8,241 nt of DNA from a virus (Duplodnaviria > Heunggongvirae > Uroviricota > Caudoviricetes). The stretch is from IMG/VR virus record IMGVR_UViG_2579778635_000004, positions 1-8,241 of that record; one strand, given 5' to 3'. Under the pieces are notes generated by a model. That model did no database searches, was not told the origin of the DNA, and was given only the letters and a program-made list of their open reading frames with translations. Below, one piece after another: positions 1 through 8,241 of this stretch; the first letter of the stretch is position 1, and each line of letters begins with the position of its first letter. The position numbers and the translations under genes are program-made.

Positions 1-1
1 G

Positions 2-718
2 AGTCATGCGGTTTTTCCTGGCATCGTGCTTGCCTGGATTCTGGGGTTACCTCTGGCTACAGGGGCATTTATCGCCGGAGTATTCTGCGCGGTGGCGACG
101 GGATACCTGAAAGACAACAGCCGAATCAAGCAAGATACAGTGATGGGGATTGTTTTTTCTGGCATGTTTGCCGCAGGTCTGATCTTGTATATTGCAGTCA
201 AACCAGACATACATCTTGACCATATTCTTTTCGGCGACATGCTCGGGGTAACCATCGGCGATATAATCCAGACGATGATTATTGCCGGGCTGGTTACACT
301 TGTTATTAGCGTAAAATGGCGGGATTTTTTGCTGTTCAGCTTTGATTATCAACAGGCGCAGGTAAGCGGTTTGCATACGCGATGGCTGCATTATGGGCTG
401 CTGTGCATGGTTTCCCTGACCATTGTGGCGACGCTGAAAGCAGTAGGTATCATTCTCTCCATTTCTCTGCTCATTGCGCCTGGCGCCATTGCGGTACTCC
501 TGACACAACGCTTTCATATTGCACTCCTACTGGCGACTGGCATATCGGTAATAGTCTCAATGACTGGTGTTTGGCTGTCCTTTTTTATCGACAGCGCACC
601 AGCTCCGACGATTGTCGTCTTATTCGCGGTTGTGTTCATCATGACGTTTACCGTTATCAGTTTCAACGCACGCACAAAGGGAAACGCTCATAGACAGGAT
701 CTGTTATCCCCCAATTAG
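2..718 (+). CDS. sitD: ABC-type divalent-metal (Mn/Fe) uptake permease, inner-membrane subunit; 3' portion only, 5' end lies upstream of the window
   Basis: Frame is open from the window edge (codons phased from nt 2) to TAG at 716-718. Translation (...SHAVFPGIVLAWILGLPLATGAFIAGVFCAVATGYLKDNSRIKQDTVMGIVFSGMFAAGL...) is uniformly hydrophobic with the conserved pattern of ABC-3 (ZnuB/MntB/SitC/SitD) permeases. It is the last gene of a + strand operon lying beside lambdoid prophage genes, the context I recall for sitABCD in E. coli/Shigella. Assignment to sitD rather than another ABC-3 paralogue is from memory and context, not a search. Confidence 0.7.
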   Translation, partial: SHAVFPGIVLAWILGLPLATGAFIAGVFCAVATGYLKDNSRIKQDTVMGIVFSGMFAAGLILYIAVKPDIHLDHILFGDMLGVTIGDIIQTMIIAGLVTLVISVKWRDFLLFSFDYQQAQVSGLHTRWLHYGLLCMVSLTIVATLKAVGIILSISLLIAPGAIAVLLTQRFHIALLLATGISVIVSMTGVWLSFFIDSAPAPTIVVLFAVVFIMTFTVISFNARTKGNAHRQDLLSPN

Positions 719-879
719 CACAACATCCGAGGGCAGCATTGTCCGCTAGTACACTGCAGTCCAGAAAGTCATGGGCGGACGTTGGGAGGAGGTGCAAATC
801 CTCCCATACAAAAAATATATAAAATCAATAATGGATTGAAATTATTCAATACTCTCACCATCGACACTTCACCAGCGAA

Positions 880-921
880 CCGCAGCACGTTTTTGCATAA
901 GGCGTGTCTGCGGTTTTCTTT
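880..921 (+). terminator. Candidate intrinsic terminator downstream of the permease gene
   Basis: Imperfect inverted repeat ccgcagcacg (880-889) / cgtgtctgcgg (903-913, one bulged t) around a 13-nt loop, followed by ttttcttt (914-921). The loop is long, so stability is uncertain. Confidence 0.35.
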
Positions 922-1072
922 ATGATTTATGCACAATGGACAATTTGAAATTATTGATGATTGTATGGTGCATCGTTTTCTGAACCTACACTGATTTTTT
1001 GGTATAGCCTTGCCTAGCCAGTCTTACCGGATCAACCCCTTCGCTATTGCAATACTAACCAAAATCATCAAT

Positions 1073-1104
1073 TTGACAGCGATTAACCAGAATAATAGTA
1101 TACT
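1073..1104 (+). promoter_or_regulatory. Candidate sigma70-type promoter for the diguanylate cyclase gene
   Basis: Perfect -35 hexamer TTGACA at 1073-1078 and a -10-like TATACT at 1099-1104 (20-bp spacing, longer than optimal; alternative AT-rich -10 hexamers lie at 1091-1098). About 70 nt upstream of the ATG at 1174, in AT-rich DNA that also contains a (TA)5 tract at 1146-1156. A Shine-Dalgarno AGGTG sits at 1164-1168, 5 nt before the ATG. Confidence 0.3.
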
Positions 1105-1173
1105 ATCACCAGTAAGAAATTATCGTTATTTGTAGCGATACATATTATATATATATCATTCTCAGGTGCGTAC

Positions 1174-2505
1174 ATGATTATCAACCAGGTACCTATAAAA
1201 ATAAAAATCTTCATCTTTTTATTTTCATGCATCTCTATTATATTTTTGTTACTGCATGAAAATAATGGAATATACATAACACAAACAACACAAATAAGTT
1301 ATAGTGTTTTCATTATTGGGCTTTTTTTCATAAACCTGATGATTTTTATTTTTCTATTACTTTACTATGTCTCTAATCAGAGACAAAGTTATCTCTTAAT
1401 TCTTTCATTCGCGTTTTTGAGCAACACGTATTATTTATTAGAAGTGGCTATTATTTCTTTATCTCCGTTAGGTAACGATTTATCTACAATCTATCAGAAA
1501 TCAAATGATATCGCAATATATTATCTATTCCGTCAGTTCAGCTTTATATCTATAATCTTTCTGGCTGTTTATTCCACCAATGTTAAAAATAAAAGTGTTT
1601 TAGAAGATAAAAGAAACATAATAATTGTTGTTTTGTCAATATTAATTCTTTTTATTACTCCGTTTGTAGCAAAAAATCTAAGCAGTGACAATATAAAATA
1701 TAGTCTTAATATTATACAATACTCGCTGAATCGTCATTTGTCGACGTGGAATATCGTGTGCACCAAAATAATATCAGTATTTTGGCTTGTATTACTTATC
1801 AGCTCATGCATCAGCATACGTAATTACTCAAAAATATGGTTGTGTATAATACTTATTAGTATAGTGTCAGTATGCAATAATCTAATTTTATTGTATTTTA
1901 TTGATAAATCCCATCCTGCATGGTACATGACAAAATTTCTTGAATTGATATCAATGATTTATATTATTTCAACACTCATGTATTATGTTTTCAGGAAATT
2001 AAATCATGCTAATCATATGGCAATTCATGATCCACTAACGAATACATACAATAGAAGATACTTTATTGACTCATTGAAGAATATATCAAAACACCATGAT
2101 TTCTCAGTAATAATGTTAGATATTGACAGTTTCAAAAGCATCAATGACAAATGGGGGCATCATATGGGTGATCAAGTCATAGTAATGGTTACCAGAATAA
2201 TAAAAAAATCCATCAGGAAAGAGGATATATTAGGGCGCTTAGGCGGTGAGGAGTTCGGTATTATCATTAAAGGTAATACTCAAAAGCTCTTGCTATCAAT
2301 TGCAGAGCGAATCAGAAAAAACATTGAAGAGCAATGCTCGGAAAAATTATTATCGCATGGACCTGAGAAAATAACTGTCAGTATTGGTTGCTTTACTTCA
2401 AAAGAGAATAATCTCAGTCCATCTGAAATGTTAGTCAATGCCGATAAAGCGTTATATCAAGCCAAAAGAACCGGAAAAAACAAGGTGATAATTCACTCAA
2501 AATAA
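1174..2505 (+). CDS. Membrane-anchored GGDEF-domain diguanylate cyclase: N-terminal ~8-helix integral membrane sensor-like domain (MASE4/YcdT-like by recollection) plus C-terminal GGDEF domain
   Basis: 443-codon ORF, ATG at 1174 preceded by AGGTG, TAA stop at 2503-2505. The C-terminal ~160 aa carry GGDEF hallmarks: DPLTNTYNRRYF, MLDIDSFKSINDKWGH, active-site GGEEF (nt 2242-2256), I-site RxxD as RKED (nt 2215-2226) at canonical spacing, and KALYQAKRTGKNKV. The N-terminal ~280 aa are about eight hydrophobic segments rich in I/L/F. The gene is very AT-rich (13 G+C in nt 1201-1260 by hand count) against ~50-58% in flanking genes. Confidence 0.9.
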   Translation: MIINQVPIKIKIFIFLFSCISIIFLLLHENNGIYITQTTQISYSVFIIGLFFINLMIFIFLLLYYVSNQRQSYLLILSFAFLSNTYYLLEVAIISLSPLGNDLSTIYQKSNDIAIYYLFRQFSFISIIFLAVYSTNVKNKSVLEDKRNIIIVVLSILILFITPFVAKNLSSDNIKYSLNIIQYSLNRHLSTWNIVCTKIISVFWLVLLISSCISIRNYSKIWLCIILISIVSVCNNLILLYFIDKSHPAWYMTKFLELISMIYIISTLMYYVFRKLNHANHMAIHDPLTNTYNRRYFIDSLKNISKHHDFSVIMLDIDSFKSINDKWGHHMGDQVIVMVTRIIKKSIRKEDILGRLGGEEFGIIIKGNTQKLLLSIAERIRKNIEEQCSEKLLSHGPEKITVSIGCFTSKENNLSPSEMLVNADKALYQAKRTGKNKVIIHSK

Positions 2506-2532
2506 ACACCTTTTTAAAATACAGCCCCAATA

Positions 2533-2569
2533 AACTGCAGAATATTATCCCATATAATATCCTGCAGTT
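2533..2569. repeat. Near-perfect 16-bp-arm palindrome in the convergent intergenic gap between the cyclase gene and tfa
   Basis: aactgcagaatattat (2533-2548) / loop cccat (2549-2553) / ataatatcctgcagtt (2554-2569); the arms are reverse complements with one mismatch (a vs g). No strong T-run follows on either strand (a weak TTTATT follows on the - strand). It may be a bidirectional terminator or a protein-binding/recombination site. Confidence 0.4.
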
Positions 2570-2578
2570 CGTAATGCA

Positions 2579-3163
2579 CTATTCGATAATGGGTACTGTT
2601 GGCCATTCAATATCCGGTGCAGTTGTTGTATTAACACGGTTCAGCAACACCCGATACTTCTTCCATGCGGCCAGTAACGCTTTCTCTTCCTCCGTTGCGA
2701 TTTCCAGATCTGCAGCATCCTGAAGCGGCGCAATATGCTCACTGGCTACCTGCATCAGGTTGTTTTTTGTTTCTTCCGCCTCCCGGATCCGGAACAGTTT
2801 TTCTGCTTCCGTATCCTTCACCCAGGCTGTGCCGTTCCACTTCTGAAACTCCCCTTCCGGCGATAACCAGGTAACATTTTTCGGTAACGGACCGAGTTCA
2901 GAAATAAATAACGCGTCGCCGGAAGCCACGTCATAAACCGTTTTACCCCGATGATCTTCAACGAGATGCCACGATGACTCATCACTGTTGAAAACAGCCA
3001 CGAAGCCAGCCGGAATATCTGGCGGTGCAATATCGGTACTGTTTGCTGGCAGACCTGTATGAGGCGGAATATATGCATCACCTTCACCAATAAATTCATT
3101 AGTTCCGGCCAGCAGATTATAAATTGTTATGGTCCGTGGTTGTTCACTCATTCTGAATGCCAT
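2579..3163 (-). CDS. tfa: Tail fibre assembly protein (lambda Tfa family chaperone)
   Basis: 194 aa beginning [58 protein letters not shown]..., which matches lambda-type Tfa as I remember it. ATG at 3161-3163 overlaps the stf stop (TAATG); TAG stop at 2579-2581. Position directly after stf is the canonical lambda order. Confidence 0.95.
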
Positions 3164-6100
3164 TATGCAAGCCTCACAATATAGTTAAATGCGATGTTTT
3201 TGACGGTGTTTTCCGCGTTACCAGCAGCGTTAACGGTGATGGTGTGTCCATGTGAGCCAATCGCAACCGAGTGCGTATGAGCACCAATACCGACAGTATG
3301 TGCGTGAGCACCTGCAGATGCAGCTGTGCCGCTGACACTATGAGTGTGCGCTCCTGCAGCACTTGTATTCACACTGGCCGCAGACACTACCTTATGTACT
3401 GACCCATTTTGTGACCACTGGCTGACTGCTGATGCGCCTGTGACACTATGAGTATGGTTTCCGGCACTTGCGGCTGTACCGCTCACACTGTGCGTATGCG
3501 CCCCGATGTTATTCGTGGATTTAGTGCCGTAATCAAACGACGATGTGGTTTTCGTCCCCAAATCCGTACTGGATGCGCTGGCGCTGTGGGTGTGCGATTT
3601 AATGCCGTCCTGTTCCTGAGACAATACAGCCCGACCACTGGCAGGTTTGCCCTTAATCGTCCAGCCACGCATATCAGGGATCACGCCTGACGGATAAGCG
3701 GCTGCAAGTTTCGGGTATGCAGATTTGTCAAAAGTCTGCCCCTGCATCAGGGCATAACCAGACGGAACGGTATCTGATGGCCACGGGATTGGTGCACCGA
3801 CTGGATAAAACTCTGCAGGAGGATGAGCCGAGGTGTAAAGCTGCGCCCACGGCGACCAGTTTGCGTCGGTCGTATCCCGTCGTGAACGAATAAATGCCGG
3901 AGCATGAGCACCGCTTGTACCACTCCAGCCGATGAGTAACTCACCTTCGCCAACGGCTGTCATCCCTTTCAGGTGAATGATATTTCCATACGTTGTTGGA
4001 TATCCGTTGTTATACACCTCGTATAACTCAAGACCTGCTGCCCCCTGCGTATTGTCTGTCAGCGCGGCTACCCGACCTTTTGAAGCCAGATTAACTGATG
4101 ATACTGCTGTTCCACCTGACGGTAGCGCCCCGATCTCTGATGCCGTTGGCTTATTTCTGGAGTTATAGTCCCTTCGCCAGCCAGGTGAATAATCTGTTCC
4201 GTGATTAATATAGGTAAACTGGGCGTTGGTTGTTCCGCCACCGCTGGATGTGGTCGGAGTGGTAATGCGGATCGTCATCGCTGACTTTATCCCCATTACT
4301 TCAATGACAGCTCCGGCGAGATGAATATTACCGCAGCCAGTATCAGTAATGATTTTATTATTGCCATAAGACCAGGAACCCTTGCACATCCAGTATGGAT
4401 GGTTAAATGCTCCCTGAGAATCCAGCCACTCGATAAACTGTGCAGTCGTCCAGTTTCCTGTTGTTGTGCTTACTGACCCACCGAAGGCACGGCAGGCACC
4501 AATATTTTTCGTAAAGGTGTCTTTGCCAGGGATATCCGCACCGTTCTGATCTTTCTGCAGACGTTTCTCAGCATTGTCATTGGCTGCTTTTACTGCCTTT
4601 GGCGTTGCCGCCAGCGTTTCAGACGTGCTGTTGGTCGCGCTGCTTAGCTGGATTATCCCTTTCTGTGCTGTCGTTGCATCCTGTGCGGTGTATTTCCCGT
4701 TAGCCAGGTCATACGCGGCCTTAACGGCTTTTGGTGTTGCCGCCAGTGACTCGGAAGTGCTGTTAGTCGCACTACTGAGCTGTACTATCCCCTTTTTTGT
4801 CGTGCTCGCATCCTCAAGCGCCACGGCGGATGCAATATCCTCTGCCCGTTTTGCCGCTGTCTCAGCGCGCGTTGCTGCAGATTCCGCCGTACTTTTGCTC
4901 TGAGCTGCTGCCTTCGCACTACCAGCAGCCTCTGTCGCCTTCGTGGATGCCGTCGTGGCGCTGCCCTTCGCTGCTGACGCCTGTCTGGTCGCCTCATCTT
5001 TTGAAGCAGACGCCGATGATGCCGATGACGCCGCCGAACTGGCGGACGATGCCGCTGCCGTTTTTGAGGATTCTGCACGGGTTTCCGACGCTTTCGCGTT
5101 CGTTTCGGATGTCTTCGCTGCGGAAGCTGACCTCGCTGCTGCCGTGGCCTGCTCAGTGGCTTCGCCAGCCTTTGTTGTGGCTGTTGAAGCGGATGATGCG
5201 GCGCTTTCTGCCGATTTTCCGGCGGCGGTGGCACTGGCTGAGGCCTGCCCGGCACTTGTTGACGCGGCACTGGCAGACGACGCAGCCGCTGTTTTTGAGC
5301 CTGCCGCAGCTGAGGCGCTCTGTCCCGCTGCCGTCTCAGAAGACCTGGCGTTCGTCTCGGACGTTTTTGCCGCCTTCGCGGAATTTCCTGCCGCCGTTGC
5401 CGAGGAAGCTGCGCTACTGGCGCTCAAGGATGCGTTCGTTTCTGATGATTTCGCTGCCTCTTTTGAGGCCGCCGCATCCCGGGCTGAAGTGGCGGCTTCT
5501 GACGCTTTCGTCGTCGCAGTGGATGCAGAAGTGGCTGCTGATTTTTGTGACGCTGCAGCATTCGTTTCTGACGTTTTCGCGGCACCGGCACTGGTGGCCG
5601 CCGCGCTTTTTGAGGACTCTGCAGCGGCAGCACTTTTTGATGCTTCAGTGGCCTTTGTTGATGCCGTTCCTGCGCTGGAAGACGCCTCCTGAGCCGACGT
5701 CGCGGCCTGTCCGGCTGACGTGCTGGCTGCACGCGCTGAGCCTGCAGCATCAGTCGCATGGGTTGCCGCCTCACTGGCAGATGTGCCGGCATCACTGGCT
5801 GACTTCTTCGCGGCTGCCGTGTTCTGTGCCACCGCGGACGCGTTACGCGCCACCTCTTCCACCATCAGTTCAAAACGGCGCAGAGCCTCCGGACGGGCAT
5901 CATCCTCCGTCATGGCACCGAGAAAATCATTCAGCGTACCGGGTCGGGAATCTTCATACACGGTGATGGTCCCGGCATGTGACGGCGGGAATCCTTCCAC
6001 CAACAGAATAACGCTGTACTGACCGTACTCAACGTCCATGCTGTAACGCCCGGCTTCATCCGGATTTTCTGAGGCCAGCGTGTTCACCACCACCGTGGTG

Positions 6101-6189
6101 CTGTTACGTTTTGCTTTCAGCTGGATTGTGCAGTTCTGTACCGGTTTTCCTGTGCCGTCTTTCAGTACACCTGAAATCTTTACTGCCAT
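3163..6189 (-). CDS. stf: Side tail fibre protein (lambda Stf family), mosaic
   Basis: Long uninterrupted ORF. The ATG at 6187-6189 ([37 protein letters not shown]...) is the likely start, with GGGG 6-9 nt upstream; the ORF track's GTG at 6195 would add only MN. The N-terminus, the Ala/Ser/Thr-rich repeats with recurring AK(T/S)SETNA motifs, the His-rich HxH C-terminal region ([40 protein letters not shown]) and the final [18 protein letters not shown] all resemble lambda Stf. TAA stop at 3163-3165. Confidence 0.95.
4590..4810 (-). repeat. Tandem duplication inside stf encoding two copies of a conserved tail-fibre repeat motif
   Basis: The protein has [28 protein letters not shown] and [28 protein letters not shown] separated by ~15 aa. 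The DNA copies (about 4594-4675 and 4723-4806) are visibly similar, e.g. ctttggcgttgccgccagcgtttcagacgtgctgttggtcgc vs cttttggtgttgccgccagtgactcggaagtgctgttagtcgc. Confidence 0.75.
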
Positions 6190-6200
6190 ATTCACCCCAC

Positions 6201-6227
6201 AAAAAAGCCCGCCTGAACCGGCGGGCT
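6201..6227 (-). terminator. Intrinsic terminator between lom and stf (- strand)
   Basis: On the - strand: AGCCCGCC (6227-6220) / 6-nt loop / GGCGGGCT (6213-6206), GC-rich 8-bp stem, immediately followed by TTTTTT (complement of a 6201-6206), then GTGGGG and the stf ATG. Confidence 0.6.
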
Positions 6228-6253
6228 GTCATAACACTGTGTTACCTGGCTAA

Positions 6254-6853
6254 TCAGAACTTATAACCGACACCCATGATGAAACCGTCAGTGCGCCAGT
6301 CGCCACTGCCGGAGCCTTCATAAGCAATATCAATGGCCACGGATTCGGTCGGGTTAAACTGCACGCCAGCTCCCCACGCCAGAGACGTGTTGCTGTGGCG
6401 ACCGTCATCACTTCCGGTCAGCACATCGTGCGTTTTCCCCTTGTTGTCAGTTACGCGAAGATAATCCCCGGAGAAAGTCGACACACGGCTGTAAGCCACA
6501 CCCGCCATCGCATACGCGCTGAACCATTCATTCACGCGCACAGACGGCCCCGCCATTACGCTGAACCAGCGGTTACGAACGGAATCTTCATGCCAGCGGG
6601 TATCGCTGTAACGGGTCAGCTGGCGATTCTTGTCTCCTGCATAGCTGAATGACGTCACCAGCCCCAACGTGTCCGTAAACTCATAACGGTATTTCACGTT
6701 AATCCCGTTCAGATCATCACTGCCGGGAACGTTCGTCGAGGCATGAAGATACCCCGCGCTCAGCGTGGACTGATGTTCAGACGCCCATGCAGGCGCACCG
6801 GATACGGCCAGACAAATGGCTGCGGACAAAATTGCTGCACAAACTTTACGCAT
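6254..6853 (-). CDS. lom: Lom outer-membrane protein (Ail/Lom/PagC/OmpX family beta-barrel), prophage-encoded
   Basis: 199 aa: MRKVCAAILSAAICLAVSGAPAWASEHQSTLSAGYLHASTNVPGSDDLNGINVKYRYEFTDTLGLVTSFSYAGDKNRQL...GFIMGVGYKF. It has a signal peptide (cleavage likely after AWA), alternating beta-strand pattern and C-terminal aromatic residue, and closely matches lambda Lom as I recall it. SD GAGAGG precedes the ATG at 6851-6853; it lies between J and stf as in lambda. Confidence 0.95.
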   Translation of the reverse strand: MRKVCAAILSAAICLAVSGAPAWASEHQSTLSAGYLHASTNVPGSDDLNGINVKYRYEFTDTLGLVTSFSYAGDKNRQLTRYSDTRWHEDSVRNRWFSVMAGPSVRVNEWFSAYAMAGVAYSRVSTFSGDYLRVTDNKGKTHDVLTGSDDGRHSNTSLAWGAGVQFNPTESVAIDIAYEGSGSGDWRTDGFIMGVGYKF

Positions 6854-6923: not shown

Positions 6924-8241
6924 TCAACGAATACTGATGCCGGAAGCAGCTTTTTTGGTCACAATCACCGTACAGTCGGTGATATTGCCTGCCCCCTGAT
7001 TGCCTTTCTGGAAAATCTTAAACTCCAGAGTGACGCTACCACCACCACTAGGCATATCAATAACTGCACTGTAACTACCGGGAATGGCCCCTTTAGTTTC
7101 TCTGGATGCGATTAATACGCCGTTTTTGCGAACTTCAAAACCATAACCCGTGTATCGCGTGCCTCCTGGGTTATTTCCGCTCCCCGGATCGTCATACGCT
7201 ATACCGTTAAAAATAATGGGCGGAATAATAATCTGGCGGTCAAAGTTATGATCATCGCTGATGGTGACTGTAACCGTACCGTTTGGTGTTTCCGTGTTAC
7301 CCCACGTACCGACTTTTTTCGGGAAGGCTTTTGATACAGCTTTAACGAAATCCCCTCTGACCTGGGTCGCCTCCAGCATGCCCTTAATCGTACAGTTCTG
7401 GTTAATCGTGACATTGTTGAGCGTTCCTGAGTTCGCATTCACACTGCCACTGATATCCGCATTTTTAGCGGTCAGCTTTCCGTCTGATGTCAGGGAAAAT
7501 ACCGGAGGACTGCCACCGCTGGTAATGGTGGGGGCCGTCAGGCGCTTCAGGAACACGTCGTTCATGAATATCTGGTTGCCCTGCGCCACAAACATCGGCG
7601 TTTCATTCCCGTTTGCCGGGTCAATAAACGCGATACGGTTAGCGGCAACCAGAAACTGGCTCAGCTTGCCTTCCTCCGTGTCCTCCATGCTGAGGCCAAT
7701 ACCCGCGACATAATGTTTGCCGTCTTTGGTCTGCTCAATTTTGACGCCCCACATGGCATTCCATTTATCGTTAGCGTCCTTCCACTCTTTCGAAAACTCA
7801 TCCAGTCTGCTGGCGTTATCCTCCGTCAGATCGACTTTTTCCAGCAGCTCCTTGCCGAGATGAGATTCGGTTATCTTGCCTTTGAAAAAATCCAGGTAAC
7901 CTTCCGCATCATCGCTCGCCCGACCGACGGCTTCCACGAATGCCGATTTGCCAACGGTGTTCACACTGCGGATATAAAAGTAATAATCATGGCCCGGTTT
8001 GATATTGATACTGGCGGCTATCCAGTACAGCGCCGTACCAAGATAGCGGGCTGTGGTTTCAACCTGCCTGATATCGGTAATCCGCTTTTCCGAGAACCAG
8101 AACTCAAACTGTACCGTCGGGTCATAAACGGCAAGATGCGGCGTGGCGGTTATCTGAAAATAGCCCGGCGTCAGCTCAATCCTCGACGGTGCTGCCGGTG
8201 CGGCAATCCGGAACGATACCGACGCCGGATCGCCCTGCTGC
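6924..8241 (-). CDS. J: Tail tip / host-specificity protein J (central tail fibre), C-terminal ~439 aa; 5' end lies beyond the right edge of the window
   Basis: The frame stays open on the - strand from the window edge to TGA at 6924-6926; the ORF track's 346-aa ORF is only the part after an internal GTG. Hand translation upstream of that GTG gives ...[45 protein letters not shown]..., matching the lambda J C-terminal region as I recall it. The last ~130 aa differ from lambda J. Confidence 0.93.

Follow-up and report, generated by a model that had tools for sequence, protein, structure and literature searches.

A probable Rac-type lambdoid prophage end in Escherichia coli carrying sitABCD, dgcX and lom as independent morons

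The window analyzed here, 8241 bp in length, is one complete draft contig (JJLK01000026.1, assembly GCA_000627255.1), the ends of which fall within sitD and J. With a probability of about 0.9, it represents the right (tail-fibre/b-region) end of a Rac-type lambdoid prophage in E. coli ttcA, with three independent morons: the Fe/Mn importer operon sitABCD, the diguanylate cyclase gene dgcX, and lom. As the window is a whole draft contig, the att sites, the integrase gene, and sitABC of its own genome are outside view, and its location is taken from relatives with 97.6–100% identity. The complete order would be J, lom, stf, tfa, dgcX, a hairpin, and sitDCBA, followed, beyond the window, by the att arm, the attR core, and uspF. 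None of the three morons belongs to virion assembly or to the lysis/lysogeny circuitry.

Open reading frames and Pfam profiles give the order sitD (3' end), dgcX, tfa, stf, lom, and J (3' part) along the window (Table 1). The initial annotation had reported the end of a Sit importer, a diguanylate cyclase, and Lom within ~7 kb, and Pfam matches and sequence identities bear out each of these genes at the place given for it. The tfa and stf genes (3.6 kb) separate dgcX from lom; the three cargo units are thus not contiguous. Their clustering is no statistical oddity, because the stretch from J to att is the standard site for non-essential genes in lambdoid phages. Rfam matches in the window (CssrB, isrG, ST7-AS1_2) were weak, far below the gathering score, and were discarded.

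Table 1. Features of the 8241-bp window and the evidence for each.
Feature	Position	Strand	Evidence
sitD, 3' 238 codons	1–718	+	Pfam ABC-3, 205 bits; contig starts inside the gene
Spacer 3' of sitD	719–876	none	blastn, H10 vs. the sit regions of phage 21 and ATCC 25922; sequence
Hairpin and T-rich tail, likely intrinsic terminator for rightward transcription	877–916	+	Fold; homology
dgcX cassette, 1684 bp, 30.5% GC	914–2597	+	blastn breakpoints against ON032529.1; GC content
Sigma-70-like promoter match	1073–1101	+	10/12 consensus positions; consensus match only
dgcX, 443 aa, MASE4 + GGDEF	1174–2505	+	Pfam; identity to O104:H4 DgcX
Imperfect AT-rich inverted repeat, CTGCAG...CTGCAG	2535–2567	none	Read from the sequence
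tfa, tail fibre assembly protein	2579–3163	-	Pfam Caudo_TAP; identity to lambda Tfa
stf, side tail fibre	3163–6195	-	Pfam phage_tail_N, Phage_fiber_2, Collar; called genes in L018
lom, Ail/Lom-family outer-membrane beta-barrel protein	6254–6853	-	Pfam Ail_Lom, 405 bits
J, 3' part, tail tip/host specificity protein	6924–8241	-	Pfam Ig_J_second, Phage_Tail_Tip, Ig_GpJ_C; contig ends inside the gene

The placement of the window in a Rac-type prophage rests on 11 relatives that have the sitD–dgcX–tfa layout (H10, STK77-E, and nine more). All of them have the 26-bp Rac att core in the interval from uspF to sitA. The core was located by an exact pattern search; blastn with default masking overlooks this AT-rich sequence. 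H10 has a second copy at the 5' end of ttcA, beside intR and xisR and 53,043 bp from the first, which lies at ttcC beside uspF; both copies are the core found in attL/attR of the K-12 Rac prophage. The H10 prophage reads ttcA, intR, xisR, recET ... lysis, trkG, terminase ... J, lom, stf, tfa, dgcX, sitDCBA, uspF. The att sites, integrase gene, and sitABC that the initial annotation proposed to seek in flanking sequence are present in relatives (in H10, as intR, the 26-bp cores, and sitABCD). In prophage-free genomes, that of E. coli C included, uspF stands directly beside an intact ttcA, homology ends exactly at the core, and this junction carries neither sit nor dgcX. Since the core lies beyond sitA in the 11 relatives, and not between tfa and the cyclase gene, as the refuting case of the initial annotation would require, sitABCD and dgcX are inside the prophage, in agreement with the earlier proposal of a cargo region at the b-region end of a lambdoid prophage.

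One of the closest known relatives of this element is the cryptic prophage Rac of K-12, with which it shares the att core, the attP-arm sequence, the hairpin element, and stfR/tfaR/lomR homology; the trkG cargo is found in H10 as well. However, K-12 has pinR–ynaE–ynaM where the window element has dgcX, and it lacks sit. Moreover, Rac of K-12 is reduced to a 23-kb remnant, compared with 53 kb and full morphogenesis genes in H10. The record named 'Salmonella phage SPF_0923' (ON032529.1) was considered as a packaged, sit-carrying Rac-type phage and rejected: it holds uspF, ompN, and ydbK and is thus a chromosomal prophage stretch, retained only as a comparator with sit and without dgcX.

The DgcX protein combines a MASE4 domain (PF17158, residues 40–274, 121 bits) with a GGDEF domain (PF00990, residues 283–437, 151 bits). 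Its translation contains RKEDILGRLGGEEF, in which the GGEEF A-site and, five residues upstream, the RKED I-site are both intact. It is identical to the protein of O104:H4 strain 2011C-3493 at 438 of 443 residues (5 substitutions), and shares with O104:H4 DgcX the MASE4–GGDEF architecture, the GGEEF and RxxD motifs, and a gene position convergent with tfa at a lambdoid prophage end. Synthesis of c-di-GMP by DgcX has been shown with catalytic-site mutants (Cimdins-Ahne et al., 2023, PMC10459773). From this near-identity to the published protein, we infer that the window allele is an active membrane-bound diguanylate cyclase. As judged from the published near-identical genes, it would raise c-di-GMP levels, leading to more cellulose and biofilm and to less motility.

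The gene appears to form a 1.7-kb low-GC moron, convergent with tfa and directly after it. The cassette (30.5% GC vs. ~50% in its flanks) stands where the sit-only prophage ON032529.1 has 33 bp (blastn), and it contains, besides dgcX itself, a promoter-like site, an AT-rich inverted repeat, and ~6 codons from the end of tfa. The promoter match (TTGACA, 17-nt spacer, TAGTAT) is the best one upstream of dgcX, in a region where sigma-70-like sites are no more numerous than in shuffled sequences. The inverted repeat sits between the convergent dgcX and tfa genes.

Other studies have described dgcX as 'adjacent to' prophage DNA, and hitch-hiking by specialised transduction was proposed (Richter et al., 2014, PMC4287979). 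The att mapping places it, instead, inside the prophage. In O104:H4, the gene is within a lambda-type prophage, where ~640 bp separate it from the lambda att core; it is flanked by tfa on one side and by this core and the P arm (89% identical to lambda 27471–27742) on the other. The att boundaries of lambda-type (O104:H4) and Rac-type prophages alike thus enclose dgcX, the flanks of the window itself being read from its relatives; this makes the gene true phage cargo rather than a hitch-hiking neighbour. Unlike the O104:H4 gene, the window-type copy is in a Rac-type prophage at ttcA, not at att-lambda, and has sitABCD between itself and attR. A search of the window for the lambda att core found none, so the window is not an att-lambda prophage end. 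More generally, the dgcX–tfa pair recurs in four settings: at att-lambda, at the Rac site both with sit and without it (the latter in JX2), and in an argW/intS remnant. Its uspF-side location in strain SE11 has already been published (PMC4287979, PMC10459773).

Among 50,697 phage records, dgcX is absent, the best tblastn matches being below 40% identity and confined to the GGDEF domain. The IMG/VR matches to DgcX were rejected as evidence of packaging; they are short predicted prophage fragments, and their identifiers mostly look like those of isolates. For these reasons, the packaging of dgcX is unproven.

At the left end of the window, the SitD fragment belongs to the ABC-3 family of permeases (PF00950) and to an Fe/Mn ABC importer of which sitD is the last gene. 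Annotated sitD genes of several E. coli genomes match this fragment with 100% nucleotide identity. The window starts inside this gene; relatives have the full sitA–sitB–sitC–sitD operon, with sequence matches to a Fur box (17/19) and an MntR palindrome 5' of sitA. Because the cassette has these operators of its own, it would constitute a phage-borne Mn/Fe importer under the control of the host iron and manganese regulons. Compared with JX2, the sit cassette measures 3815 bp; it may be viewed as a 3.8-kb moron, 97% identical to the phage 21 version and located just inside the integrase arm sites.

Phage-borne sitABCD is not new. It has been reported as a moron in infant-gut Lambda-like phages (Mathieu et al., 2020, PMC6969025) and in prophage 042p3 of EAEC 042 (PMC2808357). 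The operon occurs in the b region in 27 phage records, and likewise in PhiR47_2; phages that carry sit include phage 21, the Lambda_ev and PhiR series, and others. In phage 21 (OL657228.1), it occupies the interval from the side tail-fibre genes to attP, and in ATCC 25922 it is in the b region of an icd-integrated prophage. As in phage 21, the infant-gut phages, and 042p3, the sit genes of the window-type prophage are at the tail end/b region and are read toward the tail-fibre genes; the 3.66-kb sit region is 97% identical to that of phage 21, which also has the upstream Fur box. Integration, however, is at ttcA and not at icd. Homology to the sit regions of phage 21 and ATCC 25922 stops at position 738 of the window, and the spacer at ~765–897 is 77–78% similar (blastn) to 133 bp found upstream of sitA in both. 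The window-type sit cassette is on the att side of the hairpin, whereas phage 21 has the related 133-bp segment upstream of sitA.

This hairpin (-25.4 kcal/mol, z -3.57) folds with an apical loop of 5 nt on a stem that is interrupted. It is common to K-12 Rac, JX2, and O104:H4: a 40-bp match links the element to the end of K-12 Rac, and homology begins at 838 for O104:H4 and at 878 for JX2. Judging from sequence pattern and folding energy, it is likely an intrinsic terminator that parts the sit cassette from the dgcX cassette. The element came from homology and folding; a pattern scan for terminators over 600–2700 listed none, this hairpin included. The scan accepts loops of 3–8 nt only, and the stem and tail may lie outside its criteria despite the 5-nt loop. 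The sit and dgcX cassettes lie on opposite sides of this conserved hairpin.

The third putative moron, lom, occupies the place that is fixed in lambda, with J on one side and stf on the other (lambda-type synteny J–lom–stf). Its product matches PF06316 over the full profile (1–199 of 199, E 5e-122), and its N-terminus, MRKVCAAILSAAICLAVSGAPAWA, looks by eye like a signal peptide. In spite of its equal position, Lom is only 44% identical to the lambda protein; its gene matches the K-12 Rac lomR fragment at 97% of nucleotides, but lomR is split by IS5, whereas the lom of the window is intact. Tfa is 91% identical to lambda Tfa. Stf has 1010 aa from its first GTG (1008 aa in the public gene call), and TRF found no tandem repeats in stf.

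The distribution of these cassettes in 5426 complete genomes bears on whether they form a unit. The sitD–dgcX junction is present in 42 of them, dgcX in 771, and sitD in 2343. The dgcX–tfa arrangement at att-lambda is found in 595 genomes, the icd'–sitA junction in 739, and the uspF–ttcC–sitA junction in 495. Each cassette also stands alone at the Rac site, dgcX in JX2 and sit in ON032529.1. The two are apart far more often than together, so the arrangement is a mosaic made by recombination rather than a functional operon. A prophage end with all three genes is likewise an uncommon mosaic, not a coherent unit.

Two other readings of the cluster were weighed against the Rac-type prophage end. 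It is extremely unlikely that sit and the cyclase gene are ordinary chromosomal genes abutting a prophage, with attR between tfa and the cyclase: although the literature on dgcX used the word 'adjacent' and invoked specialised transduction (PMC4287979), and the window is without any att site, the att core is found past sitA in the 11 relatives and past dgcX in O104:H4, neither gene is at this locus in empty-site genomes, and sitABCD occurs in phage 21 and other phage records. GGDEF enzymes require divalent cations. This need, the location of all three genes within 7 kb, and the action of all three products at the envelope would fit a co-selected, functionally coupled virulence module, e.g., with Mn import feeding an Mn/Mg-dependent cyclase and Lom as the adhesin output. 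Such a module is nevertheless very improbable, given three transcription units on two strands, a hairpin between sit and dgcX, the Fur and MntR operators proper to sit, the occurrence of either cassette alone at the same site, and a junction seen in 42 genomes against 771 and 2343 for the separate genes. Functional coupling of sit and dgcX was rejected on these distribution and transcription-unit grounds.

The present state of the element is a separate matter. We consider it plausible, though we lean against it, that what the source strain carries is a defective and domesticated remnant, its cargo fixed and immobile in the chromosome. K-12 Rac is defective, the O104:H4 terminase is frameshifted, dgcX persists in short remnants (PK8566, WP2-S18), stf is fused to lysis genes in relative L011, and the remainder of the source prophage is outside the window. 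On the other hand, H10 has a complete annotated gene set (integration, recombination, regulation, replication, lysis, packaging, head, and tail); the 21-kb structural region of its prophage is, over 77–93% of the length, 97–98% identical to database entries labelled as E. coli phages, one of 55.7 kb; and tfa, stf, and lom are intact ORFs in the window. A remnant would bear on present mobility only and is compatible with a Rac-type prophage. Several dgcX prophages are visibly decayed (O104:H4, PK8566, and WP2-S18), and in some strains dgcX has in effect become a fixed part of the chromosome. A bolder proposal, which we regard as doubtful, is that the H10/window-type element is a Rac-family phage of 53 kb, intact and inducible, and that it packages both sitABCD and dgcX, with the hairpin beside the att arm as a reusable landmark for moron insertion on either side.

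All three genes have already been published as phage or prophage cargo, and in this respect the finding is ordinary. The additions made here are modest: the location of dgcX inside att boundaries, a precise map of the cassette breakpoints around the hairpin, and the absence of dgcX from the phage records of the collection. Their significance is small and mostly a matter of book-keeping: a widespread ExPEC-associated metal importer and the cyclase of O104:H4 are both phage-borne and can be stacked at one prophage end. As the phage collection still lacks a record with dgcX, transduction of c-di-GMP signalling is a simple experiment, and with a Rac-family phage that packages sitABCD and dgcX, a functional coliphage would for the first time be shown to transduce a diguanylate cyclase.

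The window is the whole of an 8241-bp draft contig (JJLK01000026.1, assembly GCA_000627255.1) in reverse complement, and its gene map was built from the ORF listing and Pfam scans. The end of a Sit-type importer, a diguanylate cyclase and Lom, which the initial annotation had reported, are all present. The contig ends, at positions 1 and 8241, fall within sitD and within J; one might guess that the assembly broke there at repeats, such as a second sit copy (plasmid-borne in many strains) and the J genes of other lambdoid prophages.

Features of the window
Feature	Position	Strand	Remarks
sitD 3' end	1-718	+	ABC-3
'capsid protein' pseudogene fragment	814-930		RefSeq annotation in E. coli STK77-E; looks spurious
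Recurrent element	838-923		about 86 bp, with predicted terminator hairpin
Hairpin	877-916		-25.4 kcal/mol, z -3.6, T-rich tail (fold prediction)
CssrB (Shigella sRNA) Rfam hit	881-977	-	sub-threshold, 29.8 bits vs 76
Candidate dgcX promoter	1073-1101		predicted, best candidate
Diguanylate cyclase, 443 aa	1174-2505	+	MASE4 + GGDEF
tfa	2579-3163	-	Caudo_TAP
IS009 (RF02111) Rfam match	2622-2820	-	213.7 bits vs gathering score 117; full model length
stf	3163-6195	-	phage_tail_N, Phage_fiber_2, Collar
lom	6254-6853	-	Ail_Lom, full length
J 3' part	6924-8241	-	Ig_J_second, Phage_Tail_Tip, Ig_GpJ_C

GC content is 58-63% in the middle of stf (about 4600-5900), a region encoding a long low-complexity stretch rich in Ala, Ser and Thr, which explains the long spurious ORFs (up to 389 aa) in other frames on both strands; TRF found no tandem array in the gene. 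Across close relatives, Stf measures 1008, 1024, 1098, 1101, 1117 or 1119 aa, and some relatives have a Peptidase_S74-type C-terminus instead, with tfa reduced to a remnant. The IS009 match lies wholly inside the tfa coding sequence, and this family probably derives from a conserved stretch of tfa and not from an independent RNA gene.

The initial annotation read sit and the cyclase as prophage cargo; the alternative is that attR lies between tfa and the cyclase and that both are chromosomal genes conserved in prophage-free strains. The E. coli genome H10, 99.1% identical in nucleotides to window positions 1-3804, has the order ttcA, intR, xisR, rcbA, ralR, recT, recE, followed by repressors, replication, lysis, trkG, terminase, portal, capsid, tail, J, lom, stf, tfa, dgcX, sitDCBA, uspF and ompN. 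Rac, the cryptic lambdoid prophage of K-12, is bounded by a repeat found at the 5' end of ttcA and at the ttcC pseudogene beside uspF. H10 has exact copies of the 26-bp core TTGTTCAGGTTGTATTGTTCTTTCTT at its two prophage ends, 53,043 bp apart, and in 11 loci with the layout of the window the core lies between uspF and sitA. Homology to K-12 extends about 150 bp inward of the core, through a stretch with repeated TTTGCCCC motifs that are also found beside the attL core. These TTTGCCCC / GGGGCAAA repeats stand on the phage side of the core at both ends (17010-17062 in locus L001; about 5790-5830 in L007, the H10 prophage), and the sit cassette starts directly after the last of them; their position and repetition suggest that they are probably arm-type sites of the integrase IntR. 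Given a core between uspF and sitA in H10 and its relatives, sitABCD and dgcX are placed inside the prophage, a position read in these relatives, with the flanks of the window itself lying beyond the contig. In many genomes (matches H190-H199) uspF is followed directly by an intact ttcA, homology does not extend past the core, and both sit and dgcX are absent from that locus. The core beyond sitA and these empty sites speak clearly for prophage cargo and against the chromosomal alternative.

Alignment of the Rac right end distinguishes four versions. Reading from tfa towards the att core, K-12 has tfaR, pinR, ynaE, ynaM, hairpin, arm and core; E. coli JX2 has tfaR, dgcX, hairpin, arm and core; ON032529.1, deposited as "Salmonella phage SPF_0923", has tfa, hairpin, sitDCBA, arm and core; and the window and H10 have tfa, dgcX, hairpin, sitDCBA, arm and core. 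Relative to JX2, 3815 bp (sit) replace 39 bp in H10, and relative to ON032529.1, 1684 bp (914-2597, dgcX) replace 33 bp in the window. Since the breakpoints fall on either side of the shared hairpin, the alignment identifies sit and dgcX as independent insertions at two points, with a conserved element between them. This hairpin is predicted to be oriented so as to stop transcription leaving sit, and phage 21 carries a 133-bp segment overlapping the hairpin on the upstream side of sitA. The sitD-dgcX junction occurs in only 42 of 5426 genomes. Lambdoid prophage ends (K-12 Rac, JX2, O104:H4) share the element of about 86 bp, which also stands alone in genomes matching neither sitD nor dgcX in the respective query (H110, H182).

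The cyclase gene has a GC content of about 30% vs about 50% in its flanks, and its translation contains GGEEF, with RKED five residues upstream. The protein shares 438 of 443 residues with its counterpart in O104:H4 str. 2011C-3493, the published DgcX (PMC4287979), whose cyclase activity was demonstrated with active-site mutants (PMC10459773). The O104:H4 locus runs bioA, ybhB, the lambda att core (exact GCTTTTTTATACTAA), P arm, dgcX, tfa, stf, lom and J; core and arm match lambda 27471-27742 at 89%, and the start of dgcX lies some 640 bp inward of attR. Among complete E. coli genomes, 771 of 5426 carry dgcX, 595 of them with the ybhB-att-dgcX junction. JX2 has the gene at the Rac site without sit, and an argW/intS remnant provides another context, with a 94% allele; in all contexts inspected, tfa or a tfa remnant follows dgcX. 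These three chromosomal locations (att-lambda, Rac/uspF site, argW/intS) are already in the literature (PMC4287979, PMC10459773). dgcX is also phage cargo outside the prophage type of the window.

For sitABCD, carriage by phages is documented: 70% of the lambda phages that infant-gut E. coli released were found to carry sitABCD, in each case with a Fur box (Mathieu et al., PMC6969025), and prophage 042p3 of EAEC 042 carries it 'at the tail end' (Chaudhuri et al., PMC2808357). By megablast, sitD is present in 27 of 50,697 phage records, including phage 21, the Lambda_ev/2E9/4A7 series, Perceval and the PhiR series from ECOR strains. Phage 21 has the order J, stf, two small ORFs, sitDCBA, small ORFs, icd', attP and int; PhiR47_2 shares it from J to sitDCBA, and ATCC 25922 has a phage 21-like arrangement as an icd-integrated prophage. 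Of the 5426 E. coli genomes, 2343 carry sitD (at 1646 sites on chromosomes and 1011 on plasmids), and the icd'-sitA junction is present in 739 and the uspF-ttcC-sitA junction in 495.

The H10 prophage has a complete annotated gene set and shares, over its 21-kb structural region, 97-98% identity with database entries submitted as E. coli phages, one of which is 55.7 kb long. Several dgcX-bearing prophages are decayed. Co-packaging of the cargo, raised in the initial annotation, is answered for sit by its presence in phage 21 and other phage records; dgcX is in none of the 50,697, and the IMG/VR matches to DgcX are short fragments. The structural region of ON032529.1 is 97.7% identical to that of H10. 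This record was submitted as a full phage genome, but its last genes are uspF, ompN and a partial ydbK, which marks it as a chromosomal prophage region with wrongly set boundaries. The K+ transporter gene trkG also lies in the 53-kb H10 prophage (L007 25155-26612), flanked by the lysis and packaging genes as it is in K-12 Rac, so that four accessory units (trkG, lom, dgcX and sitABCD) can reside in a single prophage.

In the window, sit (+) and dgcX (+), with the hairpin between them, and lom (-), within the tail region, form three separate units. Upstream of sitA, H10 has a Fur box (17/19) and a perfect MntR-type palindrome. On the basis of the literature cited and general background, it may be proposed that in a lysogen limited for Fe or Mn, sit would be derepressed via host Fur and MntR and import Mn2+/Fe2+. 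DgcX, made from the gene's own candidate promoter, would raise c-di-GMP, with more cellulose and biofilm and reduced motility as the outcome (PMC10459773), and Lom would be produced by lysogens as an Ail-family outer-membrane protein. Nothing indicates that the three are functionally coupled.

Overall, the att positions and the occurrence of sit in phages support lysogenic-conversion cargo at a lambdoid prophage end. Much of this is already known: DgcX has been described beside lambdoid prophages, including at the uspF site, sitABCD is a common lambda moron and Lom a classical one. The additions are small, namely the placement of dgcX inside the att boundaries, the cassette breakpoints flanking a conserved hairpin, and the rarity of the double-cargo mosaic.
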